Positions 3,556 to 48,813 are shown, numbered from the stretch's first letter. The stretch is 64,000 nt of DNA from Patescibacteria group bacterium (GCA_023473585.1 JAMCYU010000004.1:66033-130032); one strand, 5' to 3'. The notes: generated from the sequence alone by a model not told the origin. Program-made: numbers and translations.

Positions 3556-3598
3556 TAATGAGTGAAACGAATTAATCAAAGATGAGGAGGTGATAATT

Positions 3599-3850
3599 AT
3601 GAGCGATAAAAAAATTGGCAAGATAACTCATTTTTACGATAAAATCGGAGTCGCGGTTGTTTCCTTGTTCGGAGGATTAAAGGTTGGTGACCAGATAAAA
3701 ATTTCCGGACACGATCAGGAATTTTCCCAAACTGTCTCGTCAATCCAAATAGAACACGAAAAAATTAACGAAGCCAAAAAGGGACAGATTGTCGGTTTAA
3801 AAGTCGAAAAGCCGGTTAAGGAAAGCGACGAAATTTTTAAAGTTGAATAG
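3599..3850 (+). CDS. hypothetical small protein, EF-Tu domain-2-like beta-barrel
   Basis: SD GAGGAGG at 3583-3589. GGLKVGDQIKI...IVGLKV pattern resembles the beta-barrel of translation GTPase domain II. Confidence 0.3.
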   Translation: MSDKKIGKITHFYDKIGVAVVSLFGGLKVGDQIKISGHDQEFSQTVSSIQIEHEKINEAKKGQIVGLKVEKPVKESDEIFKVE

Positions 3851-3944
3851 CTGTTTTTCCTGCTTTTTGGTCGTTTTAGGCGAAGGCCCCTCTTTTCCTC
3901 TTTTTAAGCTTGCTTATGGAAGTCAAAAAGACTAAAATCCTCTT

Positions 3945-16585: not shown

Positions 16586-17230
16586 TTAATATTTACGAAT
16601 GACGCCGACGACTTTGCCCTGTATTTTTACCTCGGTAACATAAATAGGCGACATCTGCGAGTTGGCCGGCTGCAATCTGATTCGTCCCTCTTCAAAAAAG
16701 ATTCTTTTTAAAGTGGCCAAACCGTTTCTCAAAACGGCCACGACGATATCGCCGTTTTGAGCGTCTTCCTGATGCTGGATAACGACATAATCGCCGTCGA
16801 AAATACCCTCTTCGATTAAAGATTGGCCTTTAACCTGTAAAATATAAGACGGCTTTCCCGAAGAAAGCAAACTCGGGGCGACGGAAAAATAAAGATTGGG
16901 GTCAGTGTGGGGTTCCAGAGGCTCTCCGGCAGCAATAAAACCCAAAACCGGCAATTCGACCGCTACCTCTTCTTGAGTATTGTTTGGTTTGCCGGCTCGG
17001 CTTATCAGTTCAATGCCTCTTTTGGTCCCGGTCGTTAATTTAATAAAGCCCTTTCCTTCAAGACTTCTTAAATGTTCATAAATCGTGGCGACCGCCCGAA
17101 CCCCAACGGCATCAGCCATTTCCTGAAGTGTCGGAGCAAAACCGTATCTTTGAATAAATTGCCCAATAAAATCCAAAAGATGTCTTTCTTTACTGTATAA
17201 AATAGGAGGCATATACCTATAAAAAACCAT
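16586..17230 (-). CDS. lexA: LexA repressor
   Basis: N-terminal winged HTH and C-terminal S24 peptidase domain (AAG cleavage region, GQSLIEEGI, LATLKR). Confidence 0.75.
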   Translation of the reverse strand: MVFYRYMPPILYSKERHLLDFIGQFIQRYGFAPTLQEMADAVGVRAVATIYEHLRSLEGKGFIKLTTGTKRGIELISRAGKPNNTQEEVAVELPVLGFIAAGEPLEPHTDPNLYFSVAPSLLSSGKPSYILQVKGQSLIEEGIFDGDYVVIQHQEDAQNGDIVVAVLRNGLATLKRIFFEEGRIRLQPANSQMSPIYVTEVKIQGKVVGVIRKY

Positions 17231-17250
17231 AAAAAACCCGAAATGTCAAG

Positions 17251-17266
17251 ATCATCAAACTATGAT
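17251..17266. promoter_or_regulatory. candidate SOS operator palindrome ATCAT-N6-ATGAT
   Basis: Palindrome sits in the spacer between the uvrB -35 (ATGTCA, 17243-17248) and -10 (TAAAAT, 17266-17271), in the divergent lexA/uvrB intergenic region. Confidence 0.3.
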
Positions 17267-17277
17267 AAAATAGAACA

Positions 17278-19260
17278 ATGATGTTTAAGTTGCGTTCTTC
17301 TTTTAAGCCGATCGGCGACCAGCCGCAGGCCATTAAAGGCCTAATTGACGGCCTTAAGAAAGACTATTCTGATCAGGTTCTTCTGGGTGTGACCGGTTCC
17401 GGGAAAACCTTTACCTTGGCTAATGTCATCGCCCATCTTCAAAAACCGACTTTGGTTATTTCCCATAACAAAACTTTGGCCGCCCAGCTTTATCAGGAAT
17501 TTCGCGATTTCTTTCCCCAAAACGCCGTTTCTTATTTTGTTTCTTATTATGATTATTATCAACCGGAATCATATCTTCCCCAAACCGATACCTATATCGA
17601 AAAGGAAACGGAAATCAACGATTTAATCGATAAGCTAAGGCTTCAGGCAACGACGAATTTAATGACCAGAAAAGATACGATTATTGTGGCTTCGGTTTCA
17701 TGTATTTACAATATCGGCTCGCCGAAAGAATACGGTCATTTTGTTCTTAATCTTGAATTAGGCCAAAGTATCGAAAGAGAACAAATTTTAAAAAAATTGG
17801 TAAGGCTTCAATATGAAAGATCGGACTATGTCTTTATTCAGGGAACTTATCGTGTCAGAGGAGAAACTTTGGATATTTTTCCGGCTTACGAAGATTTTGC
17901 TTACCGTGTGGAATTGGAAAACGCCCGGGTTAAAATGATTTCTAAAATTGACCCTTTAAATAGTCAGAAACTTAAAAGTGCCAAGGCAGAAGTTAAAACT
18001 CTGGTTATCTATCCGGCCAAACATTATATGACTGACCCGGAAACAACGGAAAAATCTTTTGGTCAGATAAGGGAAGATTTAGAAAAACAGTTGCAAAAAT
18101 TTAAAAAAGAAAGAAAATTTTTAGAAGCCCAAAGGCTTAAAAGCCGGGTTAACTACGATTTGGAAATGATTAAGGAAGTGGGTTTCGTCAACGGCATTGA
18201 AAATTATTCAAGATATTTCGACGGTAGGCAAGCAGGAGATCCGCCCTTTACCCTTTTGGATTATTTTAACGAGCCTTATAAAAAAGACTGGTTATGCGTG
18301 ATTGATGAATCTCATATGACGGTGCCGCAACTTAACGGCATGTATCGTGGTGACCGCTCGCGCAAGGAAACCTTAATCAATTTTGGTTTTCGACTACCCG
18401 CGGCTTTGGATAACCGGCCCCTGAAATTTGACGAATTTACAAGACGTCTTCCTCAAACCATTTACGTTTCCGCCACCCCTTCTCCTTGGGAAATCAGCCG
18501 TTCTCAACAGGTTGTCGAACAACTGATAAGGCCGACCGGTCTTTTGGATCCGGAAATTATTCTTAAAGAAAGCCAGGGACAAATTGATGATTTAATCCAA
18601 AGAATTGACGAAAGAGTTAAAGCCGGTGAAAGAGTTTTGGTGACGACCTTAACAAAAAGAATGGCAGAGGATTTAGCTGCCTATCTGGAGGAAAGAGGCA
18701 CCAAAGTTCATTATCTTCATGCGGACGTTGAGACTTTGGACCGAACGGACATTCTTGATGACTTAAGAGAGGGAAAATATGATGTTTTGGTTGGTATCAA
18801 TCTCTTAAGAGAGGGTCTTGATTTACCGGAAGTTTCGCTGGTGGCCATTCTGGATGCTGATAAGGAAGGTTTTTTACGTTCGGAAACAAGCTTAATTCAA
18901 ACCATGGGCCGGGCGGCCCGTCATCTTCACGGACAAGTTGTCATGTACGCTGATAAAATTACCGGATCAATGCAACGGGCCATTGATGAGGTTGGGCGCC
19001 GGCGAAAAAAACAATTGGCTTATAATCTAAAATTTAAGATCACACCTGCGTCAATTAAAAAACCCATCAGGGAAAAATTAGTCAAAAGACCCAAAATAAA
19101 GGAAGAAAAGGAAAAACTTTCTAAAATTGAAGTTGACCAGCTGACGCCTGAAGATAAAAAGAGATTACTGGCAAGGTTAAATCGGCAAATGCGGGAGGCT
19201 TCAAAAAATTTAGATTTTGAACTGGCGGTAAAAATTAGAGATCAAATTAAGAAATTGTGA
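17278..19260 (+). CDS. uvrB: excinuclease ABC subunit B
   Basis: 660 aa; VTGSGKTF Walker A, helicase motifs, C-terminal UVR domain. Confidence 0.9.
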   Translation: MMFKLRSSFKPIGDQPQAIKGLIDGLKKDYSDQVLLGVTGSGKTFTLANVIAHLQKPTLVISHNKTLAAQLYQEFRDFFPQNAVSYFVSYYDYYQPESYLPQTDTYIEKETEINDLIDKLRLQATTNLMTRKDTIIVASVSCIYNIGSPKEYGHFVLNLELGQSIEREQILKKLVRLQYERSDYVFIQGTYRVRGETLDIFPAYEDFAYRVELENARVKMISKIDPLNSQKLKSAKAEVKTLVIYPAKHYMTDPETTEKSFGQIREDLEKQLQKFKKERKFLEAQRLKSRVNYDLEMIKEVGFVNGIENYSRYFDGRQAGDPPFTLLDYFNEPYKKDWLCVIDESHMTVPQLNGMYRGDRSRKETLINFGFRLPAALDNRPLKFDEFTRRLPQTIYVSATPSPWEISRSQQVVEQLIRPTGLLDPEIILKESQGQIDDLIQRIDERVKAGERVLVTTLTKRMAEDLAAYLEERGTKVHYLHADVETLDRTDILDDLREGKYDVLVGINLLREGLDLPEVSLVAILDADKEGFLRSETSLIQTMGRAARHLHGQVVMYADKITGSMQRAIDEVGRRRKKQLAYNLKFKITPASIKKPIREKLVKRPKIKEEKEKLSKIEVDQLTPEDKKRLLARLNRQMREASKNLDFELAVKIRDQIKKL

Positions 19261-19474
19261 TTTTATGCCAACGATTTCTTCTTGGTTCACTTTTTTCGAG
19301 TCCACCAGAATTCGGATTCTGAGAACAAAGACCGAGGCATTTATTTCTTAAAGCAGCGTTTTTATGACCTAAGCGATTTTCTGGGTCTTTGTGGCTCCAA
19401 TAATTATAAATTTGTGAACATTTTCGAGAGATAACACCGCCAAAATAACCTTGTTCACTCGTATTGTGACCCAT
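19247..19474 (-). CDS. hypothetical small Cys/His-containing protein
   Basis: 75 aa ORF antisense between uvrB and uvrA. Perfect SD AAGGAGG 5 nt upstream of the ATG on the minus strand. Confidence 0.35.
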   Translation of the reverse strand: MGHNTSEQGYFGGVISRKCSQIYNYWSHKDPENRLGHKNAALRNKCLGLCSQNPNSGGLEKSEPRRNRWHKITIS

Positions 19475-19573
19475 CTTTTCCTCCTTATGCAGTTTCTTAC
19501 TGACGGATTATACCACATAACCGTAAACCCTTTCTAATCTTTCTCTTTTCTGGTATAATTTTACGTCCTTTAT

Positions 19574-22489
19574 ATGCAAGATGAAATTATTATCCGGGGA
19601 GCCAGGGTTCATAATCTCAAAAACGTTGATGCAAAGATTCCCAAAAATAAACTCGTCGTTTTTACGGGTTTATCCGGCAGCGGCAAGTCTTCCATGGCTT
19701 TTGATACCATTTACGCCGAGGGACAAAGACGCTACGTTGAATCCCTTTCTGCTTATGCCCGGCAATTCTTAGGCGTTATGGATAAACCCGACGTTGATTC
19801 TATCGAGGGACTTTCTCCGGCCATTTCGATTGATCAAAAATCCGTCTCTCATAACCCGCGCTCCACGGTCGGAACCGTCACCGAAATTTATGATTATTTA
19901 AGGTTGCTTTTTGCCCGCATCGGTCATCCTCATTGTCCGAATTGCGGTCGGGAAATCAGCCAGCAGTCAAGTCAACAGGTTGTTGAACAAACCCTAAGTT
20001 TAACCACAAAAATTTTAGACTCAAAAAAACAAGTCCGACTAATGATTCTTTCGCCGGTGGTCAGGGATCGCAGGGGAGAATTTAAGGAACTTTTTAAAAA
20101 TCTTCAAAGCAAAGGTTTCCAAAAGATAAGAATTGACAAACAAACTTATTCCCTAACAGACGACCTTACCCTTATCAAAACCAATAAACACACGATCGAG
20201 GCGGTTATTGACCAGCTGACGATTGATAAAATCCTTCTGCGGCATCAGGATAAATTACTTAATCTTAAAACCCGGTTAAACGACAGTATTGAACAGGCGT
20301 TAAAATTAGCCGATGGCTTAGTTATCGTGGCTGAAGTTTTGGATGCTGATTTTAATTTTCCGGAAAAACCCCAAAAATTTGCCGATCATCTTTTTTCCGA
20401 ACATTTCTCCTGTCCTGTCTGTAACTTAAGTTTACCACCCCTTGAACCCCGAACTTTTTCTTTTAATTCGCCTTACGGCGCCTGTCCTCAATGCTCCGGA
20501 TTGGGAACTCTTTTGAAAGTTGATGAAACTTTAGTTTTAAATCCCAATTTATCCATTACCGAAGGCGGTCTTCTTCCTTTTGCGAAGGCTTTTTTCCATG
20601 AAACTTGGTTTTCCCGAATTATTTTAAACGTCTGTCAAAAACAAAACATCAACCCGCGTTTGCCGCTTTCTTCTTTATCGGCAGAACAAAAAAGAATTCT
20701 TCTTTACGGAACCGGGGAGGAAATCCATGTTGTTGAAGGAAAAAATCGTTTCGGCAGTTTAACTCATATCCATGAAACTTTTGCCGGGATTATCTTTGAA
20801 TTAGAAAGACACTATCGGGAAACCGAATCTGATTATGTGAGGCTTGAAATAGAAAAATACATGCGGCGGGAAATTTGTCCCGAATGCCGGGGCGGAAGAC
20901 TTAAAAAGGAAGTCCTGTCGATCACGATTAACGGGCAATCAATTATTGAAATCACCAATTTATCAATCAGGGAAGCTTTGTCCTGGATTAACAATCTAAG
21001 CCTTCATCTTTCCGTTAGGGAGCAAACCATTGCTCACTTGGTGATCAAGGAAATTAAAACCCGGCTTAGCTTTTTAAACTCGGTCGGTTTGGATTACTTA
21101 ACCGTCGATCGGGGAACCCAAACCCTAGCCGGTGGGGAAGCCCAAAGAATCAGACTGGCTTCTCAAATCGGTTCCGGACTTTCCGGTGTTTTATATGTTT
21201 TAGATGAGCCGTCCATTGGTTTGCATCCAAGGGACAATCACAAGCTCATTGAGACCTTAAGAAATCTTCGCGATTTAGGCAATACCGTTATCGTCGTCGA
21301 GCACGACCGGGAGATGATCGAATCCGCCGATTTTATTTTTGATTTTGGGCCGGGTGCCGGTGATCATGGCGGTCAAATTGTGGCGACGGGAACTTTAAAC
21401 CAGATAAAAAATCATCAAGATTCTTTAACGGGGGCGTATTTGGCGGAAAGGAAAAAGATTAAAGTCGAACCGTCTTCCGCTTCTTCCGCCGCTCATTTTT
21501 TAAAAATTAACGGCTGCCAACAGTTTAATCTTAAAAAGATTGATGTCTCTTTTCCTTTAGGCAAGTTTATTTGCGTTACCGGCGTTTCCGGTTCCGGCAA
21601 ATCAACCCTCATTGTGGAAACCCTTTATCACGCTTTAGCCCAAAAAATTAATCCCTACCATCGGGAAAAACCAGGCAAATTTGAAAGCCTTGAAGGTCTG
21701 GATTATGTCAATAAAATTATTTTGATTGATCAGTCGCCGATTGGCCGGACACCAAGATCAAATCCGGTAACTTATACCGGCGCTTTTAATTTTATCCGCG
21801 ATTTATTCGCTCAAACACCCGAAGCTAAAGTCCGCGGCTATAAAACCGGAAGATTTTCCTTTAATGTTAAGGGGGGAAGATGTGAAGCCTGTGAGGGCGA
21901 AGGTCAAATAAAAATCGAGATGCAATTTTTACCCGATGTTTATGTGGATTGCGAAGTCTGCCATGGTCAAAGATATAACCATGAAACTCTCGAAGTCACC
22001 TTTAAGGGCAAAAACATCGCCGAAATCTTAGACATGACCGTTGAGGAAGCTTTAGTTTTCTTTACCCATATCCCGACGCTTGTTGATAAACTGCAAACTT
22101 TAACCGATGTTGGTTTGTCTTACATGCATTTAGGGCAGCCGGCGCCAACTCTGTCAGGCGGGGAGGCGCAAAGAGTTAAATTGGCCAGTGAGCTTTCCAA
22201 GAGAGCCACGGGGAAGACTTTGTATATTTTAGACGAACCTACCACGGGACTTCATTTTGCCGATTTAGAAAAATTGCTCCTGGTTCTCAAACAATTAGTG
22301 CAAAAGGGCAATACGGTCGTTATCATCGAACATAATCTTGATGTCATCAAAAACGCCGATTATCTTATTGATTTAGGCCCCGAGGGCGGAGACAAAGGAG
22401 GATACTTAGTTGCCAGCGGGACACCTTACGAGGTATCCTTAAAAAGGAAAGAGTCTCAAACAGGCCAATTTCTGGCAAGAATACTTTAG
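19574..22489 (+). CDS. uvrA: excinuclease ABC subunit A
   Basis: 971 aa, two ABC ATPase modules, zinc-finger cysteines; N-terminus IIRGARVHNLKNVD typical. Confidence 0.95.
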   Translation: MQDEIIIRGARVHNLKNVDAKIPKNKLVVFTGLSGSGKSSMAFDTIYAEGQRRYVESLSAYARQFLGVMDKPDVDSIEGLSPAISIDQKSVSHNPRSTVGTVTEIYDYLRLLFARIGHPHCPNCGREISQQSSQQVVEQTLSLTTKILDSKKQVRLMILSPVVRDRRGEFKELFKNLQSKGFQKIRIDKQTYSLTDDLTLIKTNKHTIEAVIDQLTIDKILLRHQDKLLNLKTRLNDSIEQALKLADGLVIVAEVLDADFNFPEKPQKFADHLFSEHFSCPVCNLSLPPLEPRTFSFNSPYGACPQCSGLGTLLKVDETLVLNPNLSITEGGLLPFAKAFFHETWFSRIILNVCQKQNINPRLPLSSLSAEQKRILLYGTGEEIHVVEGKNRFGSLTHIHETFAGIIFELERHYRETESDYVRLEIEKYMRREICPECRGGRLKKEVLSITINGQSIIEITNLSIREALSWINNLSLHLSVREQTIAHLVIKEIKTRLSFLNSVGLDYLTVDRGTQTLAGGEAQRIRLASQIGSGLSGVLYVLDEPSIGLHPRDNHKLIETLRNLRDLGNTVIVVEHDREMIESADFIFDFGPGAGDHGGQIVATGTLNQIKNHQDSLTGAYLAERKKIKVEPSSASSAAHFLKINGCQQFNLKKIDVSFPLGKFICVTGVSGSGKSTLIVETLYHALAQKINPYHREKPGKFESLEGLDYVNKIILIDQSPIGRTPRSNPVTYTGAFNFIRDLFAQTPEAKVRGYKTGRFSFNVKGGRCEACEGEGQIKIEMQFLPDVYVDCEVCHGQRYNHETLEVTFKGKNIAEILDMTVEEALVFFTHIPTLVDKLQTLTDVGLSYMHLGQPAPTLSGGEAQRVKLASELSKRATGKTLYILDEPTTGLHFADLEKLLLVLKQLVQKGNTVVIIEHNLDVIKNADYLIDLGPEGGDKGGYLVASGTPYEVSLKRKESQTGQFLARIL

Positions 22490-22498
22490 TTTAAAAAA

Positions 22499-24298
22499 AT
22501 GATCAAGTTTTTTTTCGTCGTTTTCTCTTTTTTCTTTTCTTTTCTTTTCTTCTTTGCCAAAGACGCCCGGGCTTCTAATGAATTTTCTTCAGCTTATGAT
22601 CTGACTTTCGAGGTCAAAAATGACGCCAAAACTTTTGTTTTACAAAATATCCATTTAACAAATTTAACGACCAATTATTACGCTTCCGAATACACCCTGA
22701 TTTTGGGAACCGATAAAATTGAACAAATAGAAGCTTTTGACGGTCAAGGACCATTAAAAATCAAGGTGGAAAAAAATTTCGAGCAAACCAAAATTCATGT
22801 TCAATTTAACGAAAAAATTGTCGGTTTGGGGAAAATTTTAAACTGGACTTTAAAATACCAAAGTTTGGAAATTGCCAAAAAATTAGGCAGAATCTGGGAA
22901 ATTAACATTCCCAGATTGTCTGCCGAAGAGAACCCGACCTTCTATAACGTTTCTCTCCTCGTCCCTCCGGTTTTTAATGAGCCGGCCTATGTTTTCCCGC
23001 AGCCTAAAAATCGCTATTACTGGACGCTTCATGAGGGTTCAAAAGACGGGATCAGTCTGGCTTTCGGTGACTGGCAAGGATTTAAATTTGATCTTAATTA
23101 TCATCTTGAAAATAAGCAACTTCTTTCCGGAAAAACGGAAATTGCTTTACCGGCAGACACACCTTACCAAAAGATAATTCTTAAAAATATTAACCCCAAA
23201 CCTAAAAAAATCAGGGTTGATCATGATGGCAATTGGTTAGCCGAGTATTTTCTTTTACCCAAACAAAAACTTGACGTTAAGGTTTCCGGTTCGGTGAAGA
23301 TTTTTGCCCAAGAACAACCCGATTACCCGAAAGACGACGGCGCTTCTGTTTACCATAATTATTTAAAGACGGAAGAATTTTGGGAGCAAAATGAAAAGAT
23401 AAAAGAGCTTGCTAAGCAATTAAAAACGCCGCGCGAGATCTATGATTACGTTATTAAAACTCTAAATTATGATTACGAACGCGCTAATCAGGAAACCAAG
23501 CGTCTGGGAGCGGCGGCAATTTTAACCCAGCCTCAAAAGGCTATTTGTATGGAATTCACTGATCTTTTCATTGCTTTAGCCAGAAGTTCAAATCTTCCCG
23601 CGCGTGAAGTTGATGGTTTTGCTTACACCAGCAATTCAAAACTAAAACCTCTGTCTTTAGTCACCGATGTTTTACATTCCTGGCCGGAATATTGGGATAA
23701 AGATAAAAATCTTTGGGTGCAAATTGATCCGACCTGGGGGAAAACCAGCCAGATGAATTATTTTGACCGCTTTGATTTTAATCATTTTGCTTTTGTCATC
23801 AGGGGTTTAAGTTCTAAAGAACCCTATCCCGCCGGTTCCTATCGAAGCCAAAGTGGCGGTAAAGACGTCCTGGTTGAATTTAGCGATGATATCCCGCAAG
23901 AAACGACGCAAAACCCAAAGGTCGAAATCGTTTTCCCCAAAAAATATCTTGCCGGTTTGCCCTTAAAAGGCAAAGTTATTATTTCTAACCCGAACCGGAC
24001 CGCTCTTTATAATTTAAAACCAAGCCTTAATTCCTCGTTCCAAATCAAGAATCATGATCTTGAAATCCCCATTTTGCCGCCTCAAGCCGAAAAAATCATG
24101 GAGATAGAAATTCCTAATAACGATTTTTTCCTTAATGCTTTAGGCTTGGTAACTTTAAGCTTGGATGGCCGACCTTACACGGCCAGGATAAACATTATTT
24201 CTTTGCCATTATTAATCATCCCGCTCGTTATTTTAATCGTCAGCTTAGGTTTTCTCCTTTGTCATGTTGGGAAAAAAATATGGACCAGAATCTTTTGA
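22499..24298 (+). CDS. transglutaminase-like domain protein, signal peptide and C-terminal TM anchor
   Basis: Catalytic-core-like AICMEFTDLF (Cys), HSWPEYW (His), DPTW (Asp). Confidence 0.5.
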   Translation: MIKFFFVVFSFFFSFLFFFAKDARASNEFSSAYDLTFEVKNDAKTFVLQNIHLTNLTTNYYASEYTLILGTDKIEQIEAFDGQGPLKIKVEKNFEQTKIHVQFNEKIVGLGKILNWTLKYQSLEIAKKLGRIWEINIPRLSAEENPTFYNVSLLVPPVFNEPAYVFPQPKNRYYWTLHEGSKDGISLAFGDWQGFKFDLNYHLENKQLLSGKTEIALPADTPYQKIILKNINPKPKKIRVDHDGNWLAEYFLLPKQKLDVKVSGSVKIFAQEQPDYPKDDGASVYHNYLKTEEFWEQNEKIKELAKQLKTPREIYDYVIKTLNYDYERANQETKRLGAAAILTQPQKAICMEFTDLFIALARSSNLPAREVDGFAYTSNSKLKPLSLVTDVLHSWPEYWDKDKNLWVQIDPTWGKTSQMNYFDRFDFNHFAFVIRGLSSKEPYPAGSYRSQSGGKDVLVEFSDDIPQETTQNPKVEIVFPKKYLAGLPLKGKVIISNPNRTALYNLKPSLNSSFQIKNHDLEIPILPPQAEKIMEIEIPNNDFFLNALGLVTLSLDGRPYTARINIISLPLLIIPLVILIVSLGFLLCHVGKKIWTRIF

Positions 24299-25572
24299 AC
24301 GACCTAAAAGGTTTGCCACAAACGCCGGGGGTTTATTTGTTTGCCGACAAAGAAAACCAAATTCTTTATGTCGGCAAGGCTCTGAATCTTCAGCATAGAG
24401 TCCGAAGTTATAAAAACGTCCTTGACCCAAAAACAAAACTTTTGTTCAGTCAGGTTGCCAAAATCAACCATATCAAAGTCTTTTCGGAATTTGAAGCGCT
24501 TTTGCTGGAAAGCTCCTTAATCAAAAAATATCAACCCAAATATAATTTAAGATTAAAAGACGATAAAAGTTTTTTATACATCGCCGTAACGCCGGAAGAA
24601 TATCCTAAGGTTTTAAGCGTCAGAAAAAACGATTTGACCCAAACCAAATATCTCTTTGGCCCTTTTCCTTCTGCAAAAACCGTTAAAGAGGTTTTGTTTT
24701 TTTTAAGAAAGATTTTTCCTTACTGCAGCCAGAAAGGCAAAAACTTAAAACCGTGTTTTTGGCATCATCTAAAACTCTGCGACCCTTGCCCCGGTGAAAT
24801 TAATAAATTAATTGGGGAAGAAAAGAAAAAACAAAAACAAATTTATCTTCGCAATCTAAAAAATTTGGCGGCTGTTTTATCGGGTGAATCCAAGAACTTA
24901 ATCAAAAATTTAACCTCGCAAATGCAATTGGCAGCCAAACAACAAAATTTCGAACAGGCCTTAACATTGCGCGATCAAAGAGAAAAACTAAACTGGTTAA
25001 CCGGTTCTTATTATCGAACCGGTCTTTATTTGGAAAAACCCAATTTTTTTGAAGAAGAACAGCAAAATGAGTTAAAAACTCTGAAAAAATTATTGAAGTT
25101 GCCCTCGTTAAAAAAAATTGAGGGTTATGATCTTTCCAATCTTTCCGGTCTTTTTGCCTCCGGCTCAATGGTCGTCTTTGCTGATGGCATCATGGCTCCT
25201 GATCAATACCGGCGCTTTAAAATAAAAAGAATCGGTCAGCCTAACGACGTCGGCATGCTCACCGAGGTTTTAACCCGGCGGCTTAAGCATCAAGAATGGA
25301 CTTATCCAGATTTAATTATGGTTGACGGCGGTCAGACTCAAGTTTCCGCGGCCTTAAAAATCATTAATTTGGCCAATTTAGATATTCCGGTGATCGGCTT
25401 AGCTAAAAAAATGGAGCGGATTATCTATAAAGATGGTCTTCTTTGGCGAAAACTAAAATTGGACGAAACCGATGCCGGCCTTAACCTTTTAAAAAGAATC
25501 AGAGACGAATCGCACCGTTTTGCTTTAGCTTATCATTTTAAGCTAAGAGAGAAAACTTTGGGTTTGACATAA
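24280..25572 (+). CDS. uvrC: excinuclease ABC subunit C (short form lacking C-terminal HhH)
   Basis: N-terminal GIY-YIG domain (GVYLF...ILYVGKA), UVR motif, RNase H-like endonuclease region. Only ~431 aa. Confidence 0.7.
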   Translation: MDQNLLNDLKGLPQTPGVYLFADKENQILYVGKALNLQHRVRSYKNVLDPKTKLLFSQVAKINHIKVFSEFEALLLESSLIKKYQPKYNLRLKDDKSFLYIAVTPEEYPKVLSVRKNDLTQTKYLFGPFPSAKTVKEVLFFLRKIFPYCSQKGKNLKPCFWHHLKLCDPCPGEINKLIGEEKKKQKQIYLRNLKNLAAVLSGESKNLIKNLTSQMQLAAKQQNFEQALTLRDQREKLNWLTGSYYRTGLYLEKPNFFEEEQQNELKTLKKLLKLPSLKKIEGYDLSNLSGLFASGSMVVFADGIMAPDQYRRFKIKRIGQPNDVGMLTEVLTRRLKHQEWTYPDLIMVDGGQTQVSAALKIINLANLDIPVIGLAKKMERIIYKDGLLWRKLKLDETDAGLNLLKRIRDESHRFALAYHFKLREKTLGLT

Positions 25573-28626: not shown

Positions 28627-28713
28627 GGGCAAGTGGCGAAACTGGCAGACGCGCAGGCTTCAGGAGCCTGTTCCCTTTAACAAGGAATGGAGGTTCGAGT
28701 CCTCTCTTGCCCA
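28627..28713 (+). tRNA. tRNA-Leu (CAG)
   Basis: Class II cloverleaf: acceptor GGGCAAG/CUUGCCC, anticodon loop UUCAGGA, long variable arm, T-loop UUCGAGU. Confidence 0.8.
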
Positions 28714-28718
28714 CTTAA

Positions 28719-28805
28719 GCCGAGGTGGTGAAATCGGTAGACACGCAGCCTTGAGGAGGCTGTACCCTTAAACAAGGTGTGCAGGTTCAAATCCTGTCCT
28801 CGGCA
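28719..28805 (+). tRNA. tRNA-Leu (GAG)
   Basis: Acceptor GCCGAGG/CCUCGGC, anticodon loop UUGAGGA, long variable arm. Confidence 0.8.
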
Positions 28806-28888
28806 CAGCATAAGTGGGAGTTCGTTTACCCCGCTGATTGCGGAGCAATTTTGCGGGGAGTCTCCCCGAGAGCACTTAAAATAGAGAA

Positions 28889-29066
28889 TGACCGCTTAGC
28901 TCAACGGTGGAGCGCGACATTTACACCGCGCCTGCACTGGCCGGTTAGTTCAGTTGGTAGAACGCCTCGTTTACATCGAGGAAGTCGGAGGTTCGAGTCC
29001 TCCATCGGCCACAGTTTCGGCGGGCAGGTCGAAGAGGTTGGTGGTTCGAATCCACCAGCGGTCACC
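28889..29066 (+). other. two tRNA-half-like segments flanking tRNA-Val (5' half 28889-28938, 3' half 29012-29066 ending in encoded CCA)
   Basis: GACCGCU (5') and AGCGGUC-A-CCA (3') are perfectly complementary acceptor-like strands. The 5' piece has a canonical D-arm, the 3' piece a canonical T-arm GGUGGUUCGAAUCCACC. No canonical anticodon arm can be assembled. Confidence 0.3.
28939..29011 (+). tRNA. tRNA-Val (UAC)
   Basis: Acceptor GGCCGGU/AUCGGCC, anticodon loop UUUACAU, T-loop UUCGAGU. Confidence 0.8.
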
Positions 29067-29072
29067 AGAAGC

Positions 29073-29933
29073 TTATATTTTCGTTTTTTTCCATCGGCGG
29101 TAAAGAATAACTCCACCCAAAACCGGCACCCAGATAACCCCATAAACCATAATCCAAATTCCCTTTTCGGCCAAACCTCTTCCGGTATTGATTAAGGATC
29201 TGACGGCTAATTTAAAGACGACGGCCGGTCTAAAAGCCTGGCTTGGAGCGTAGGGAAGAGCCATTTCGTCTGAAGATAAATAAATCGTGATTTTTGATAA
29301 ACTGGCGGTTTGTTCCAAATATTTTTGCCTGCCTTTTAAAGCATCAATTTGATCCTGAAGACCAATCAGCTCCCGTTGAACCGTTAAGAGGTCCTGAACT
29401 TGTGCCGCCTTGTTCATAATTTCTTCAAATTTACTTTTGGTCGCTTCCAAAGTTTTTAAACGGGCCTCCAAATCAACATATTGGTCGGTTACGTCTGTTC
29501 CCATAACATTTTCTGAAGTAACCTTAACGGCAAGTTTTCGGTATTCGTCAATCGTCCCTTTAACTTTATCGGCGGGTATTCTTACCACAACTGTGGCAAA
29601 AGGCGCTTCTTCGGGTTGGCTAATAGTGCTTGAAACCATAAAACCGCCGTTCGTTTTGGCCAGATCGATGATTTTGTCAGCAACTTCCTTGACTTTTAAA
29701 ACGACCAAAGACATTGAGGTTTCTTCAACGATAATTCTTTTAGCCTGGTTCGTCGGCGCCGATTCTTGCTGAAAAGAAAGACGCGAAGGAAGGGGAGCGG
29801 AAGAAAAAAATTCGGAATAATTGGTTACCCTAGATAAACCGAAAGGAGAAACGCCAAAATAGGGCCGTAAGATAAAATAAACCAGGGCTATAAGAAGAAG
29901 GGAAGAGAGTTTGTGATTTTTAATCCAATCCAT
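29073..29933 (-). CDS. DUF4349-like membrane-anchored coiled-coil protein
   Basis: Start assigned to the internal Met (MDWIKNHK...) because the longer ORF runs into tRNA-Phe. N- and C-terminal TM segments with a central coiled coil. Confidence 0.45.
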   Translation of the reverse strand: MDWIKNHKLSSLLLIALVYFILRPYFGVSPFGLSRVTNYSEFFSSAPLPSRLSFQQESAPTNQAKRIIVEETSMSLVVLKVKEVADKIIDLAKTNGGFMVSSTISQPEEAPFATVVVRIPADKVKGTIDEYRKLAVKVTSENVMGTDVTDQYVDLEARLKTLEATKSKFEEIMNKAAQVQDLLTVQRELIGLQDQIDALKGRQKYLEQTASLSKITIYLSSDEMALPYAPSQAFRPAVVFKLAVRSLINTGRGLAEKGIWIMVYGVIWVPVLGGVILYRRWKKTKI

Positions 29934-29968
29934 AACTTCATGATAAAATTGAATAAAGTGTTTGTCAA

Positions 29969-29997
29969 GTAAACCCAAATTTGGTAGAATAAGTCGT
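29969..29997 (+). promoter_or_regulatory. sigma70-like promoter upstream of tRNA-Phe
   Basis: TTGTCA, 17 nt spacer, extended -10 TGgTAGAAT. Confidence 0.4.
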
Positions 29998-30023
29998 GTA
30001 CTTCCAAAACAAAGTTTGTACAT

Positions 30024-30096
30024 GCCGAGGTAGCCAAGGCGGTCACGGCGCGTGTCTGAAAAACATGAGATGACAGTTCGATTCTGTCCCTCGGCA
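30024..30096 (+). tRNA. tRNA-Phe (GAA)
   Basis: Acceptor GCCGAGG/CCUCGGC, anticodon loop CUGAAAA, T-loop UUCGAUU. Confidence 0.75.
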
Positions 30097-30162
30097 CTAG
30101 AAATTTACTCAGGAAACGTCTTTTGCGAAAATTATTTTTCGCAAGTAAATTTCTAGTGTGAA
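30094..30162 (+). repeat. ~65-nt palindromic hairpin element (paralog at 39277-39337)
   Basis: CACTAGAAATTTACT...AGTAAATTTCTAGTG outer 15-bp inverted repeat with a nested CTTTTGCGAAAA/TTTTTCGCAAG inverted repeat; begins at the 3' end of tRNA-Phe. Confidence 0.5.
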
Positions 30163-30213
30163 CACGTTTTAAAAGAAGATGTTTACACTGAAAAATCGTT
30201 TAGATTTTTTAGT

Positions 30214-30284
30214 GCGGGTGTGGTTTAATGGTAAAATAACTCCCTTCCAAGGAGTTGACGGCAGTTCGATTCTGCTCACCCGCT
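30214..30284 (+). tRNA. tRNA-Gly (UCC)
   Basis: Acceptor GCGGGUG/CACCCGC, anticodon loop CUUCCAA. Confidence 0.8.
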
Positions 30285-30349
30285 CAAGTCGTTGAGCGAG
30301 GCTCGCTAAAGGCGGCCCGCTCCCGAGTCAAACTCGGTTCGTAAAAGTT

Positions 30350-30420
30350 TTCGGGATCGTCTAGCGGTAGGACAGCAGCCTTTGGAGCTGCGAACCTAGG
30401 TTCGAATCCTAGTCCCGAAG
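30350..30420 (+). tRNA. tRNA-Gln (UUG)
   Basis: U1-A72 start as in bacterial tRNA-Gln, D-loop AGCGGUA, anticodon loop CUUUGGA. Confidence 0.7.
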
Positions 30421-30454
30421 CCGATTCGACTCGCGAAAGAATCATATTAATTAT

Positions 30455-30540
30455 GCCGGGGTGGCGGAACTGGCAGACGCGCAGGACTTAAAATCCTGTG
30501 ATGCTAACACATCGTGAGGGTTCGAGTCCCTCTCTCGGCA
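30455..30540 (+). tRNA. tRNA-Leu (UAA)
   Basis: Class II; anticodon loop CUUAAAA, long variable arm, T-loop UUCGAGU. Confidence 0.75.
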
Positions 30541-30598
30541 CAAAGGATGTTAATAATTATCACTTGCTAAATAGCGTGAGGTAATATACACTTAAGAC

Positions 30599-31024
30599 GT
30601 GAAAGACCTTAAGGAAATAAGAAGTGTTATACCGCTAATCATATGGTGGTGTGAAGGGACAAAACCCAGACGTGATAAGAGGTGGAAAAACGCAGTCCTT
30701 TGCCCAATAGAGGTTAGCAACACTGATCCAAAAATTATTAAAATATTTAGAGATTATCTTGTACAAGAATTGGGGGTTTCAGAAAAAGGTATAAAGGGTC
30801 AACTGCAAGTTCATGAAGGAGATAATAAAAGTGAACTTGAGATTTATTGGTCAAAAATAACCGATATTCCATTGAGTCAATTCAATAAAACTATCATAAG
30901 AAAAATCGGAAATAAACCTGGAAAGAGTAAAGGAACTTTCAAATTAAGATTTTACAATAAAAGAGTATATAAAAAACTAGAAAGCTCTTTAACTAAATTT
31001 TTGAAGCTCTTTAACGGAGTGTAG
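30599..31024 (+). CDS. hypothetical protein embedded in tRNA cluster
   Basis: 141 aa ORF, GTG start 8 nt after a TATACA -10. Its stop codon lies inside the 5' end of tRNA-Pro. No recognisable domain. Confidence 0.3.
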   Translation: MKDLKEIRSVIPLIIWWCEGTKPRRDKRWKNAVLCPIEVSNTDPKIIKIFRDYLVQELGVSEKGIKGQLQVHEGDNKSELEIYWSKITDIPLSQFNKTIIRKIGNKPGKSKGTFKLRFYNKRVYKKLESSLTKFLKLFNGV

Positions 31025-31091
31025 CGCAGTTGGCTAGCGCGCCTCGTTTGGGACGAGGAGGTCCCCGGTTCAAGTCCGGGCACTCCGACCA
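31015..31091 (+). tRNA. tRNA-Pro (UGG), CCA encoded
   Basis: C1-G72 pair typical of bacterial tRNA-Pro, anticodon loop UUUGGGA, 3' end ...CACUCCG-A-CCA. Confidence 0.8.
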
Positions 31092-31140
31092 ACTTAAAAG
31101 TGAGGGTTTGGTTCATAGCAGAACAATTCACTAGGGTTAC

Positions 31141-31212
31141 GCGGGAGTAGTTCAGCAGTAGAACGTTTCCTTGCCAAGGAAAAGGTCGCGGGTGCGAATC
31201 CCGTCTCCCGCT
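31141..31212 (+). tRNA. tRNA-Gly (GCC)
   Basis: Acceptor GCGGGAG/CUCCCGC, anticodon loop UUGCCAA. Confidence 0.8.
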
Positions 31213-31278
31213 CAAGCGCCTTTGGCGACTTGAGCGAGGCTCGCCTCGCCTGAAAGGCGGGCGGCCCGCTCTATATTT

Positions 31279-31530
31279 ATGTTTATTGTTTACGTCCTTC
31301 AAAGTCTCAAAGATAACAAGACATACGTTGGATATACCGACAATTTTGAGAGACGATTCAAACAGCATAATTCAGGGAAATCAAAATCTACAAAAAATCG
31401 AGCGCCATTTAAATTACTCTTCGAAGAAGAATTTGAAAATTCAGTTGAAGCGAAAAAACGAGAGTTGTGGTGGAAAAGCGGAATTGGAAGAAAGAAACTG
31501 AAGGAGTATTTTGATAAGATCAAGAAATGA
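31279..31530 (+). CDS. GIY-YIG nuclease family small protein (YhbQ/UPF0213-like)
   Basis: 83 aa; IVYVLQSLKDNKTYVGYTDNFERRFKQHN matches the GIY-YIG (GIY...YVG..R...H) pattern. Follows tRNA-Gly and a GC-rich hairpin. Confidence 0.65.
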   Translation: MFIVYVLQSLKDNKTYVGYTDNFERRFKQHNSGKSKSTKNRAPFKLLFEEEFENSVEAKKRELWWKSGIGRKKLKEYFDKIKK

Positions 31531-31853
31531 CAGAAAAGATATGTTTTAAGCGAGGGCTCTTTGGAGCGCTTCCCGGATATTTTTGCCGCCAAACCAACCT
31601 TTAAGATATAAAATTGTGTGTTTGTTCCGATGCCAGTCCTGAAGATAATATTTATCAATACGTCCACCCCTTTTTAAGAAAATAGCGATTAGTTCATCGA
31701 TAGAGGATTTTGTATTTATACCTTATTATAACACACCCAAAATTTAATTTCTCCGAGAGCTTGATAAGCTTCTTGTAACTTGATAAAATAGTTTTAATTG
31801 CCTCGAGCAGACGCGTTACAACGCGATTTGGTATAATCAAATCGCTAGTTTTT

Positions 31854-31927
31854 GCTCTCGTAGCTCAATTGGATAGAGCAGAGGGTTTCTAACCTTCAGG
31901 TTGCGTGTTCGAATCACGCCGAGAGCG
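31854..31927 (+). tRNA. tRNA-Arg (UCU)
   Basis: Acceptor GCUCUCG/CGAGAGC, anticodon loop UUUCUAA. Preceded by extended -10 TGgTATAAT embedded in the 8-bp inverted repeat GCGATTTG...CAAATCGC. Confidence 0.75.
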
Positions 31928-32047
31928 CAAAAAGAAGCGCGCGGTTGGGGGGTTCGCTTGCCCCGTAGACGACTTTAAGGAGTTCTTCGGGGAGTCCCTC
32001 TGGAGGCGCACGATAAGTTGGGAAAAGACAGGTGTTTTATCCCATAT

Positions 32048-32120
32048 GGTGGATGTAGCTCACCAGTAGAGCGCCCGCCTGTGAAGCGGGAGGAAGCGGG
32101 AGCATCACCCGTCATCCACC
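32048..32120 (+). tRNA. tRNA-His (GUG) with encoded G-1; atypical D- and T-loops
   Basis: 8-bp acceptor including G-1:C73 (His hallmark) and anticodon loop CUGUGAA. D-loop ACCAGUA lacks G18G19; T-loop AGCAUCA lacks the UUC motif. Confidence 0.5.
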
Positions 32121-32153
32121 CATAAAGACTTAGGCCGTTACGACGACATATAG

Positions 32154-35644: not shown

Positions 35645-36205
35645 ATGAAAATCAATTTTCTTAGCGTTAACAATCAAGATGGTCTTATTGAAGGAATTAA
35701 GCTCTTTAAACTCAAAGTTAACCGCGATTCAAGAGGCATCCTCATGGAAACCTTTAAAACAAGCTGGCCAGAGGTTTTTGGTCCGGATCTTCCCTTCGGC
35801 CAAAGTTATTGTTCGGTAACCAACCCGGGTTTTGCCCGTGATGAGGATCGCTGGCATTATCACCCGACCAAACAAACGGATAGATTTGTTGTTGTCAAAG
35901 GAAGCGCCGTTTTCGCTATTTACGATTCGCGAAAGGATTCGAAAACTCGCGGACATTTAAATCTTTTTTTGATGGGGGATATAAATGGGGACAAAGGACA
36001 CTATCTTTTGGTTATTCCCCGTAATGTTCTGCACGGATTTTGCGTGGTAAGCAGGGAGCCTTGTTATCTTATCTCTTATATTTCCACCCTGTACGATCCC
36101 AATGAAGAGGGGAGAATTTCCTTTACGGAATCAGGCGTGGTCTTTCCTGACGGAACACCATTCTCTTGGAAACCGGTAAGAGAACAGTTTATCTCCCAAA
36201 AGTGA
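35645..36205 (+). CDS. RmlC-like cupin (dTDP-4-dehydrorhamnose 3,5-epimerase/sugar ketoisomerase family)
   Basis: 186 aa. [17 protein letters not shown]...HGF pattern typical of RmlC/FdtA cupins. Confidence 0.5.
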
Positions 36206-37232
36206 GAATATCTTCATCCGCAAGTTTATGATTAAGACCGACGTTTTGGCCTGGAAATTTCACCGATTGACCCCAGACTTTGGCCTCTTTAACTTGCAAT
36301 TCTTGAGAAATCTTAAAAACGGCGTCTTTAACGGTTTGCCCTTTTTTTAAGATTAACGGTTTGTCTTTATCGGCTTCACAACCTGGCGTTTTTAAATACA
36401 CTCTGATTAAATTTAATTCTTGCCAGATTTTTTCTTTTAGTTCTTCAACCCCTTGGCCTAAAAGTCCGGAAAGATAAAGAAAATCGGGGTTTTTTTCATA
36501 ATTATTCCGCTGATCTATTTTGTTGATAACGGTTAAAGCCGGCAGATAAACCCGGTTGCCTAAAAAGGCATCAATTAATTGGTTAACGTTTAGGTCTTCT
36601 TTCACCTGAATTTCCGCGTTGACCAAACGAAATTCCGAAGCTATGGCCAAAGCCAGACTGACGTTACTTCTTAAACCACCCTTGGCTTTCTTTTTGATCA
36701 GGACAAGCGGCGGCTTTTGATTAATTCTGACACCGGCGGCATAAAGCTCTGTTTCGATGCTTTTTAACTGTTCTTCACTTTTTTGAATGTCCAAAATTAA
36801 AAGCAAAAGATCGGCTGATCTGACCACGGAGAGAATCTCCCGGCCCCGTCCCTTGCCCTTGGCGGCGCCTCCGACCAAGCCCGGCAAATCCAAAATCTGG
36901 ATTTTCGCCCCCTTATAATCCATCATCCCCGGAATCACGGTTATGGTCGTAAAGGCATAAGGCGCCACCCTGGAATTGGCCTCGGTCAGAAGGTTTAAAA
37001 GCGTTGATTTACCCACCGAAGGATAACCGACCAAAACGACGGTCGCGTCACCCTGCTTGGCCACGGCAAAAGCCGCCCCACCGCCGCCTTTTTTACTTTG
37101 TTTTTCGGCCAGTTCGTCTTCGAGTCTGGCAATCCGCGCCCGCATTTTTCCCAGATAATGATCGGTTCCCTTATGATGAGGGGTTTTTCTGATCTCTTCT
37201 TCAATTTGGGCAATTCTTTCCTGAATTTCCAT
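36189..37232 (-). CDS. DRG-family Obg-like GTPase with C-terminal TGS domain (archaeal/eukaryotic-type)
   Basis: Near-colinear match to DRG1: [11 protein letters not shown]...[42 protein letters not shown]...YAFTT...PG...[13 protein letters not shown]...[10 protein letters not shown]. Confidence 0.8.
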
Positions 37233-37236
37233 AAGT

Positions 37237-37367
37237 TGATAAATTATTAATTCGTTTCGCTCATTATATCAAAGATAAATGAGTGAACTTTGATTAATTC
37301 GTTTCGCTCATTATATCAAAGATAAATGAGTGAACTTTGATTAATTCGTTTCGCTCATTATATCAAA
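37237..37367 (+). repeat. tandem array (~2.7 copies) of 47-bp inverted-repeat module
   Basis: Unit gattaattcgtttcgctcattatatcaaagataaatgagtgaacttt repeats exactly at 37292-37338 and 37339-37367, with a variant first copy. On the minus strand each unit reads TGaTATAAT (extended -10) facing the DRG gene. Confidence 0.85.
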
Positions 37368-37412
37368 AAAGCCTCTCTTGAAAAGAATCGATAATTAGCG
37401 TATAAAAGATTC

Positions 37413-39602: not shown

Positions 39603-39635
39603 CGCACTGTAAAATCGTCAAAATTTTACAGTGCG
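39603..39635 (-). promoter_or_regulatory. perfect 13-bp stem hairpin overlapping the tRNA-Arg 3' end and preceding the GIY-YIG start
   Basis: CGCACUGUAAAAU-uuugacg-AUUUUACAGUGCG; no U-tract follows. Confidence 0.45.
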
Positions 39636-39705
39636 CCCCTGGCAGGAATCGAACCCGCATTACTGGTTCCGAAGACCAGAGCTTTATCCGTTAAGCTACA
39701 GGGGC
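39634..39705 (-). tRNA. tRNA-Arg (UCG)
   Basis: Acceptor GCCCCUG/CAGGGGC, anticodon loop CUUCGGA, T-loop UUCGAUU. Confidence 0.8.
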
Positions 39706-39720
39706 TTAACTTATTTTGTA

Positions 39721-39779
39721 AAAAATGAGCAAAATTATTGATATTTCTTTGATTAATTCGTTTCGCTCATTATATCAAA
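39721..39779 (+). repeat. partial copy (~1.3 units) of the 47-bp inverted-repeat module
   Basis: gattaattcgtttcgctcattatatcaaa (39751-39779) is identical to the 37.3 kb unit; preceded by the aaaaatgagcaaaa arm. Minus-strand TGaTATAAT faces tRNA-Arg. Confidence 0.6.
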
Positions 39780-40386
39780 TTTGTTCTTTTTTTGCTTCGC
39801 CGATGGTCGAAACTTCGCCGTGGCCGGGGTAGAGAATGGTTGCTTTGGGTAATTTAAATATTTTGTTTAAAGATTGATCCAGATCTTTTTTGGAGCTATA
39901 AGAAAAATCCGTGCGGCCCAAACCGTTGGCAAATAACGTATCACCGGAAAAAATAACCCCTTGACCCAAAAGACTGATCCCGCCTGGCGTATGGCCGGGC
40001 GTTTCCATAACTTTTAAAACCTCTTGCCCGAACTTAATTTTTTCTTTCTCTTTTAAAAAACGGTCAGCCGAAGGAGCCGGATCAACGCTAATGCCTAAAA
40101 AATATTGGGCGCTTTTTTGCGCCTGTTTTAATAAAAAGAGATCTTTTGCATGAATCAAAAAGGGGATTTGGTAGGCTAATTTAAGCTCCAAAGCCGCCAG
40201 GACATGATCAAAATGAGCGTGAGTTGCCAAAAGGGCCGTGGGTTTGAGCTTAAGGTCGGCAATTTTAGCCTCGATATAAGCGGCCGCCTCGCCCGGATCA
40301 ATAATCAAGGTTTCTTTGGTTTTTTCGTCCCAGACAAGATAACAATTCGTTGCCAACTGTCCAACGCTCAGTCTTTGCACCTTCAT
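39775..40386 (-). CDS. MBL-fold metallo-hydrolase (glyoxalase II-like)
   Basis: THAHFDH zinc motif; 203 aa. Confidence 0.7.
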   Translation of the reverse strand: MKVQRLSVGQLATNCYLVWDEKTKETLIIDPGEAAAYIEAKIADLKLKPTALLATHAHFDHVLAALELKLAYQIPFLIHAKDLFLLKQAQKSAQYFLGISVDPAPSADRFLKEKEKIKFGQEVLKVMETPGHTPGGISLLGQGVIFSGDTLFANGLGRTDFSYSSKKDLDQSLNKIFKLPKATILYPGHGEVSTIGEAKKEQI

Positions 40387-40465
40387 GATTTGATTTTAGC
40401 ATATTGACAATCTTTAGGGAATCTTGACTTGACACTTTTAAAAAGTTATGTAAGTATAGGGACAC

Positions 40466-48793: not shown

Positions 48794-48813
48794 AAAATGT
48801 TATAATTCCCCCC

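Follow-up and report, generated by a model that had tools for sequence, protein, structure and literature searches.

A probable direct-repeat LexA operator between divergent lexA and uvrB genes of a Gottesmanbacteria-like Patescibacterium

Divergently transcribed lexA and uvrB genes raise the question of where LexA would bind in the short spacer between them, and whether one site could serve both promoters. We consider this question here for the SOS and nucleotide excision repair (NER) cluster at positions 16586-25572 of a 64,000-nucleotide window, the whole stretch of DNA analyzed, from a Patescibacteria group bacterium (GCA_023473585.1, JAMCYU010000004.1:66033-130032). Pfam and NCBIfam identify the lexA, uvrB, uvrA, transglutaminase-like, and short uvrC genes of the cluster, which also has a small antisense open reading frame (ORF). 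The nearest database proteins come from metagenome-assembled genomes of the "Patescibacteria group" and Candidatus Gottesmanbacteria, and the source is a Gottesmanbacteria-like Patescibacterium. A preliminary description of the locus had proposed a palindrome, ATCAT-N6-ATGAT, as a lineage-specific LexA operator. We present evidence that a direct repeat 9 bp away from it is the probable operator. The elements of the spacer and the two genes that flank it are as follows.

17227..17242, minus strand: probable LexA operator, direct repeat TTCGG-gttttt-TATGG of period 11 (TTCGGGTTTTTTATGG; also written TTCGGgtttttTATGG), from a position weight matrix (PWM), conservation, and recurrence
17244..17249, minus strand: lexA -35, TTGACA, read from the sequence, invariant in alignment A3 and found in almost all lexA upstream regions
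17224-17219, minus strand: lexA -10, TTTTAT, weak and inferred, 6 nt ahead of the ATG
17243..17271, plus strand: uvrB promoter, ATGTCA-17-TAAAAT with an upstream TG, from a promoter scan
17243-17248, plus strand: uvrB -35, ATGTCA, overlapping the lexA -35 on the opposite strand
17263-17271, plus strand: uvrB extended -10, TGATAAAAT, 6-9 nt before the uvrB ATG
17251..17266, no strand: the palindrome flagged earlier, exact match
16586-17230, minus strand: lexA ORF as first called (PF01726 and PF00717)
16586..17212, minus strand: lexA coding sequence with corrected start, 208 aa (PF01726, PF00717, TIGR00498, and homologue starts)
17278..19260, plus strand: uvrB, 660 aa (Pfam UvrB_inter, Helicase_C, UvrB, and UVR)

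The lexA start was placed at 17212 rather than 17230 because every LexA homologue and the identical NCBI protein (P0001; 208 aa, 100% identity) begin with MPPxLY. The spacer to uvrB is therefore 65 bp long, not 47 bp as first reported, while the divergent orientation of the pair is upheld. The ATG at 17228-17230, which both the ORF finder and the preliminary description took as the lexA start, is the ATG within TATGG, the second half-site of the direct repeat. The uvrB start may be the second ATG (17281), the sole one retained in the related locus L103. LexA itself has the winged helix-turn-helix and S24 domains (PF01726, residues 14-72; PF00717, residues 94-208) and scores 175.1 bits against the TIGR00498 equivalog (cut-off, 110.95). 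Among 27 homologues (alignment A1), the AAG stretch (A94, A95, and G96) does not vary, nor do S131 and K169. We take these to be the Ala-Gly cleavage site and the Ser/Lys dyad, matching A84-G85, S119, and K156 of Escherichia coli LexA.

For comparison, we fetched 80 species-representative lexA loci, 14 metagenome loci, and ten contigs with the closest LexA proteins. Metagenome contigs scanned with this one LexA protein gave no match above 63% identity, and the closer relatives were obtained by exact-protein look-ups. Read in the lexA direction, the minus strand of the window is CTTGACA-TT-TCGGGTTTTTTATGG-TTTTTTATAGGTAT-ATG, with the direct repeat beginning 2 nt past the -35. Nearly all of the 80 representative loci have the same layout, in which TTGAC(A) is followed directly by TTCGG-N6-TT[CT]GG (period 11) and then by the -10; across the fetched loci the lexA ATG often lies just 6 nt past that -10. 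In most of 99 loci the element precedes lexA, and it is recognizable across the Microgenomates. Seven close relatives, with LexA proteins 74-81% identical to that of the window, have a direct repeat that is identical or 1 base different (A3). Within them the block TTGACA-TTTCGGGTTT(T/A)TTATGGT contains a single variable base, and its flanks are variable. The genome of L103 is about 10% diverged in DNA, and its lexA differs from that of the window only at synonymous positions, with a 100% identical LexA protein. Its 65-bp spacer is identical as well, save for the uvrB start, where the window has ATGATG and L103 has CAATG; this identity fits a densely packed control region. Spacing is also conserved: the divergent -10 lies a fixed 16 nt from the lexA -35 in six close relatives, and the box lies 35 nt from the divergent ATG in the window (uvrB) and 35-41 nt from it in L100 to L102 (the transglutaminase-like gene). 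The roomier 128-bp spacer of L050 has separate boxes for lexA and uvrB.

The element recurs upstream of other repair genes. A 16-mer PWM was built from lexA-upstream sites only and run over the fetched loci (1.02 Mb in total). Apart from those at lexA, its strongest matches are directly upstream of uvrB (L050, L053, and L069, with weaker ones in L028, L043, and L052), and others are directly upstream of uvrA (L018, L033, L043, and L053, plus L028 and L073 at 13 bits). These boxes occur where the gene is not adjacent to lexA or has its own promoter; in the uvrA upstream regions of relatives, no box was found where uvrA simply follows uvrB. When the uvrB upstream regions were read directly, the element was seen to abut the -10 in L028, L043, L052, L053, and L069. 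Over the roughly 1 Mb scanned, the matches of at least 15 bits with a recognizable downstream gene are specific to lexA, uvrB, and uvrA. The earlier suggestion of a lineage-specific SOS box, neither of the E. coli nor of the Gram-positive type, was right in spirit, with the direct repeat and not the palindrome as the sequence that recurs.

Within the window, the site at 17227-17242 ranks 1st of 127,970 positions when it is itself excluded from the PWM, with a score of 19.2 bits that is attained by 3% of shuffled windows. A match at 22923, antisense within the transglutaminase coding sequence, was considered as a second box and treated as chance, as were a match at 3745 within a small ORF (3600-3851) and the remaining window matches, the scores of which fall in the range of shuffled windows (16-20 bits). 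The best PWM score across 19261-19573, upstream of uvrA, is 7.9 bits, so that no LexA box was found at uvrA in the window, and the direct repeat was not found at the window's other extended -10 promoters. TTTGAT, upstream of the lexA -35, was rejected as a third half-site because its spacing of 17 nt does not fit the register of 11 or 22 nt. Upstream of lexA in L019 and L086 to L091, half-sites follow one another three or four times at the 11-bp period (e.g., TCTGGGTAATCTTTGGGCTTTATTTGG), an arrangement that hints at higher-order LexA binding in those loci.

Taken with the sequence comparisons, the best explanation of the locus, which we hold with good confidence, is that the direct repeat is a LexA operator controlling lexA and uvrB and that the palindrome is not. 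LexA would bind at 17227-17242 and repress its own promoter through an operator that fills most of the stretch from the -35 to the weak -10 and start. The lexA and uvrB -35 hexamers share base pairs and the box starts 1-2 bp away, and a single LexA dimer 1 bp from the shared -35 could plausibly silence both promoters. Upon DNA damage, RecA-stimulated self-cleavage of LexA would open both. The uvrA, transglutaminase-like, and uvrC genes would form a second unit with a strong promoter of its own and no box in this genome. As in its relatives, the lexA geometry suggests a leaderless mRNA, and the uvrB transcript would be leaderless or have a very short leader. TGnTAnAAT occurs 6-12 nt before the uvrB or transglutaminase start in many relatives. 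A second uvrB promoter within the first lexA codons (TGTATAAAAT, 17194-17203), with the box acting as a roadblock, as is apparently the case in L010 and L012, was set aside as speculative, since the conserved N terminus of LexA constrains the same sequence as well.

Several points weigh against this reading. The counts of lexA loci are circular, as lexA upstream sites made up the training set of the PWM, and only the uvrA and uvrB matches are independent. Recurrence was assessed on uvr genes only: no dinB or other further SOS gene was found in the window, and a search with E. coli RecA found no recA in the window or in the fetched loci. The lexA -10 of the window is a poor match to consensus. 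Repression of uvrB could be weak or absent, as the box lies upstream of its -35 and the extended -10 may make that -35 dispensable. A string that includes the palindrome core, ATCAAA[CA]T[AG]TG[AT]TAAAAT, is kept among close relatives, and the promoter explains only part of it. Sanchez-Osuna, Barbe, and Erill (Environ Microbiol 19:3465; doi 10.1111/1462-2920.13826) reportedly described a Patescibacteria SOS regulon and LexA-binding motif in 2017, and that motif may not be identical with TTCGG-N6-TTYGG.

The palindrome (ATCATCAAACTATGAT, ATCAT-caaact-ATGAT) occurs at exactly the coordinates first given, 17251-17266, and is the single exact match in the window. As a lineage-specific operator it would repress uvrB from the promoter spacer and lexA from just upstream, and its arms do match exactly as an inverted repeat within the uvrB promoter, in a spacer shared with the diverged L103; L096 and L102 carry a related perfect palindrome, TTATCA-N5-TGATAA. 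It lies inside the predicted uvrB promoter. Its right arm, ATGAT, supplies the TG and the first T of the extended -10 and is explained by that element. Perfect inverted repeats with 5-bp arms and gaps of 0-10 are present in 49% of the window's 65-bp tiles (9% for a gap of exactly 6). With 2 mismatches allowed there are 36 matches to the palindrome against 29 expected, those with 1 or 2 mismatches lying mostly inside coding sequence, and the window has no other exact copy. Though real, the palindrome does not exceed what chance would give. Among close relatives its left arm reads ATCAT, ATTAT, TAATC, CAATC, or CCATC. L095, L098/L099, and L101 do not keep the symmetry, and L100 lacks the region altogether, even though LexA in these loci is 74-80% identical and the direct-repeat box has not changed. 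At 1 mismatch or fewer, the palindrome is found in 4 of the 9 closest lexA loci and in none of the 90 others, in which LexA identity is below 70%. A search for it upstream of other DNA-damage genes, the check proposed by the preliminary description, came out negative in the window and in those uvrA and uvrB upstream sequences of relatives that were read. An operator role for the palindrome is not supported, half of it being the uvrB extended -10 and the remainder promoter spacer, and we assign hardly any probability to it.

The palindrome, or the string ATCAAAnTnTGnTAAAAT, might instead be a site for a second regulator or a low-affinity LexA contact that tunes uvrB or the transglutaminase-like gene in the Gottesmanbacteria clade only. 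ATCAAA and TG[AT]TAAAAT stand at fixed spacing in six close relatives, and the window, L096, and L102 share ATCA-N5-TGAT symmetry; the arms are, however, only 4-5 bp long and overlap promoter elements that are conserved anyway. Many distant loci have the related TTGAYATAGTTTG ahead of the lexA -35, but its position relative to both promoters drifts there (6 to about 30 nt from the -35). ATCAAA was rejected as a general feature of this genome's extended -10 promoters, being absent from all others in the window, and its restriction to this one favors a dedicated site. L100 lacks the string yet keeps the box, and no candidate regulator was found. We consider this reading unlikely. The direct repeat, for its part, might be a promoter-spacer feature or the site of some other factor common to lexA, uvrA, and uvrB promoters, since it is assigned to LexA by association and always sits between or beside promoter hexamers. 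LexA as a rule autoregulates its gene from an operator within the lexA promoter, which counts against this view. So do the specificity of the repeat for lexA, uvrB, and uvrA and its absence from the window's other extended -10 promoters, and we regard the view as very unlikely. Kilic et al. (2020; PMC7739468) state that recognition of direct repeats by LexA arose independently several times, and they count a 2017 Patescibacteria study among their sources. By placing Patescibacterial LexA among direct-repeat binders, this passage speaks both against a promoter-spacer or other-factor site and against the palindrome as operator; the likely operator is a direct repeat of the kind that this later paper attributes to Patescibacteria.

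The direct-repeat reading can be compared with known SOS systems. The window shares its superphylum and a canonical LexA with the Patescibacteria SOS regulon; here the repeat has an 11-bp period and is found at lexA and, in relatives, at the promoters of uvrA and uvrB, and the window itself has a single box common to two divergent promoters and none at uvrA. In E. coli, LexA is autoregulated and NER genes are under its control through the palindrome CTGT-N8-ACAG. The logic here would be the same, in keeping with a putative operator that overlaps the core promoter, whereas that operator is a direct repeat, lexA and uvrB are divergent with overlapping -35 hexamers, the transcripts are probably leaderless, and uvrA has no box. 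The alphaproteobacterial LexA box, GTTC-N7-GTTC as quoted in PMC8565304, has the same direct-repeat layout and 11-bp period, and the Levybacteria-type variant GTTCTACTTTTTTTCGTAT has a GTTC half-site too; the alphaproteobacterial box belongs to another phylum, and the half-sites of the window are TTCGG and TATGG. The finding corrects one operator assignment and one start codon and would place the locus in the direct-repeat type of LexA control. The locus illustrates in compact form how, in a very small genome, two probably leaderless promoters placed back to back could be served by one LexA site.

An extended -10 (TGnTAnAAT) 6-7 nt before an ATG, with no Shine-Dalgarno sequence, is seen not only at uvrB (17263-17280) but also at a metallo-beta-lactamase-fold gene (40386-40401, minus strand) and at the trigger factor gene (48798-48816). 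About a third of the fetched loci have the same geometry at lexA, which suggests that leaderless mRNAs are widespread.

The other features of the cluster are as follows.

19247..19474, minus strand: small gene, 75 aa (own promoter, GGAGG ribosome-binding site, and L103 homologue)
19551..19559, plus strand: uvrA promoter, extended -10 TGGTATAAT, strong, with no LexA box nearby
19574..22489, plus strand: uvrA, 971 aa (Pfam UvrA_inter, UvrA_DNA-bind, and ABC_tran)
22499..24298, plus strand: transglutaminase-like protein, 599 aa, 10 nt past uvrA (PF01841)
24280..25572, plus strand: uvrC, short form, 430 aa from M8, in an ORF that opens at 24259 (Pfam GIY-YIG, UVR, and UvrC_RNaseH_dom)

The locus is a genuine DNA-damage repair cluster of a tiny, uncultured bacterium and is typical of its lineage. 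Pfam and NCBIfam bear out the earlier gene calls, and the compact island holds, with the order lexA<>uvrB-uvrA-transglutaminase(-uvrC) found again in many Microgenomates loci. Rfam returned nothing meaningful on 17100-19700. The uvrB-uvrA spacers of several Gottesmanbacteria loci (L001, L002, L004, L009, L010, L012, and L015) share a conserved sequence that is rich in GC and resembles a hairpin, …CCCCGG..CCACCCGAGG.C.TTTTTGC, immediately ahead of uvrA; it may be an attenuator or terminator and is not present in the window.

The transglutaminase-like protein matches PF01841 at 53.6 bits, and its Cys350, His393, and Asp410 are invariant in 25 homologues (alignment A2). The AlphaFold model (pLDDT, 85) has an N-terminal signal or anchor helix (residues 2-17), beta-sandwich domains, a papain-like core, and a C-terminal transmembrane helix (569-598), and the protein is predicted to be extracytoplasmic and membrane anchored. 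Its best Protein Data Bank match is 3isr, a putative cysteine protease (Foldseek E = 2e-9). It shares the papain-like core and invariant Cys-His-Asp triad with transglutaminase-like cysteine proteases (PF01841; 3isr and 3kd4) and differs in being multidomain, predicted to be membrane anchored, and encoded in or beside the lexA/uvr cluster across Microgenomates.

Of the 80 genome loci, at least 26 have the gene linked to lexA. There it lies either third after lexA<>uvrB-uvrA, sometimes with uvrC next, or directly divergent from lexA, with a single box in a 56-100-bp spacer. The linkage to lexA is likewise present in L095 and L100 to L104 and persists where uvr genes are absent. Three distant homologues from the protein's match list lie beside lexA (L105 and L106) or between uvrA and uvrC (L107). 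In every case examined (many of the loci L002 to L074, L095, and L100 to L107), the gene is linked to lexA or uvr genes. The flanking order is also conserved, with a VTT domain gene on one side and holin-like, CofD, SecG, and SBP genes on the other, and plain synteny is a possible reason for the linkage because gene order is conserved on both sides. It is a tentative and rather doubtful proposal that the transglutaminase-like gene is a core LexA-controlled gene of Microgenomates, alongside an excision repair that among the closest UvrC relatives would operate with a UvrC lacking the helix-hairpin-helix (HhH) domain. If true, it would point to an envelope- or surface-modifying SOS branch in reduced, probably episymbiotic bacteria, and LexA control of this gene would be an unusual SOS output in candidate-phyla-radiation bacteria, one not directed at DNA. 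No SOS link for transglutaminase-like genes was found in the searchable literature.

UvrC keeps the GIY-YIG, UVR, and RNase H domains and scores 347.6 bits against TIGR00194 (cut-off, 285.45). The missing C-terminal HhH domain, noted previously, was confirmed: the protein ends 15 residues past the RNase H domain with no HhH in the Pfam scan, and its alignment to Thermotoga maritima UvrC (2nrt) halts at chain residue 164 of 220, before HhH2. The likely start is M8 (24280), where uvrC overlaps the end of the transglutaminase gene. The HhH-less form is the norm among the closest relatives and not a truncation, because most of the best 150 UvrC cluster representatives are 410-460 aa long and align to their own C termini; short versions are also encoded in L095 (449 aa), L103 (411 aa), and L107 (429 aa). 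Compared with canonical UvrC of about 600 aa (E. coli and T. maritima), the window protein has the same GIY-YIG 3'-incision, UVR (UvrB-binding), and RNase H-like 5'-incision domains and lacks the C-terminal (HhH)2 DNA-binding domain. Unlike Cho, it retains the RNase H endonuclease domain. This raises the question of how 5' incision works without the HhH domain.

The 75-aa ORF (19247-19474, minus strand) is convergent with uvrB and divergent from uvrA. Its antisense position between the two genes and its Shine-Dalgarno sequence were described correctly: GGAGG lies 5 nt before the ATG, with a predicted promoter, TAGAAA-18-TATAAT, and TGGTATAAT at 19515-19507. The ORF matched only itself among 5.8 billion proteins and nothing in Pfam (E <= 10) or NCBIfam. 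A 66-aa counterpart lies at the same place in L103 (7738-7938), with 34 of 66 residues identical. The ORF is probably a real, fast-evolving gene because this homologue has no indels, the codon-position differences (23/19/39) show a third-position excess, and the promoter and ribosome-binding site are conserved. Its surrounding DNA, 65-72% identical to that of L103, is the fastest-evolving part of the aligned 15.9-19.6 kb. The Cys/His character originally attributed to the product does not carry over, as these residues are mostly not kept in the single homologue. The ORF is absent from L095 and L096, where the uvrB-uvrA gap is 148 and 56 bp, respectively.

Elsewhere in the window, 11 tRNA genes are packed into 3.5 kb (28627-32121), and four further tRNA genes lie outside this region. 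Four exact copies of an 18-mer, GAAACGAATTAATCAAAG, are present where 0.27 would be expected, at 3564-3581 (plus strand) and at 37288-37305, 37335-37352, and 39747-39764 (minus strand). It follows a TATAAT -10 ("TATAATGAG[CT]GAAACG...") at the three sites for which flanks were read and may represent a shared promoter/leader cassette. Copies precede the small ORF at 3600-3851 and a GTPase gene (36189-37232), and a tRNA-Arg gene (39633-39705) has the fourth copy about 40 nt ahead of it. Upstream of the GTPase gene (MMR_HSR1/TGS), a 47-bp unit containing a TGATATAAT promoter and the GAAACGAATTAATCAAAG leader is tandemly duplicated at about 37240-37370 (minus strand), with two full copies and a partial third.

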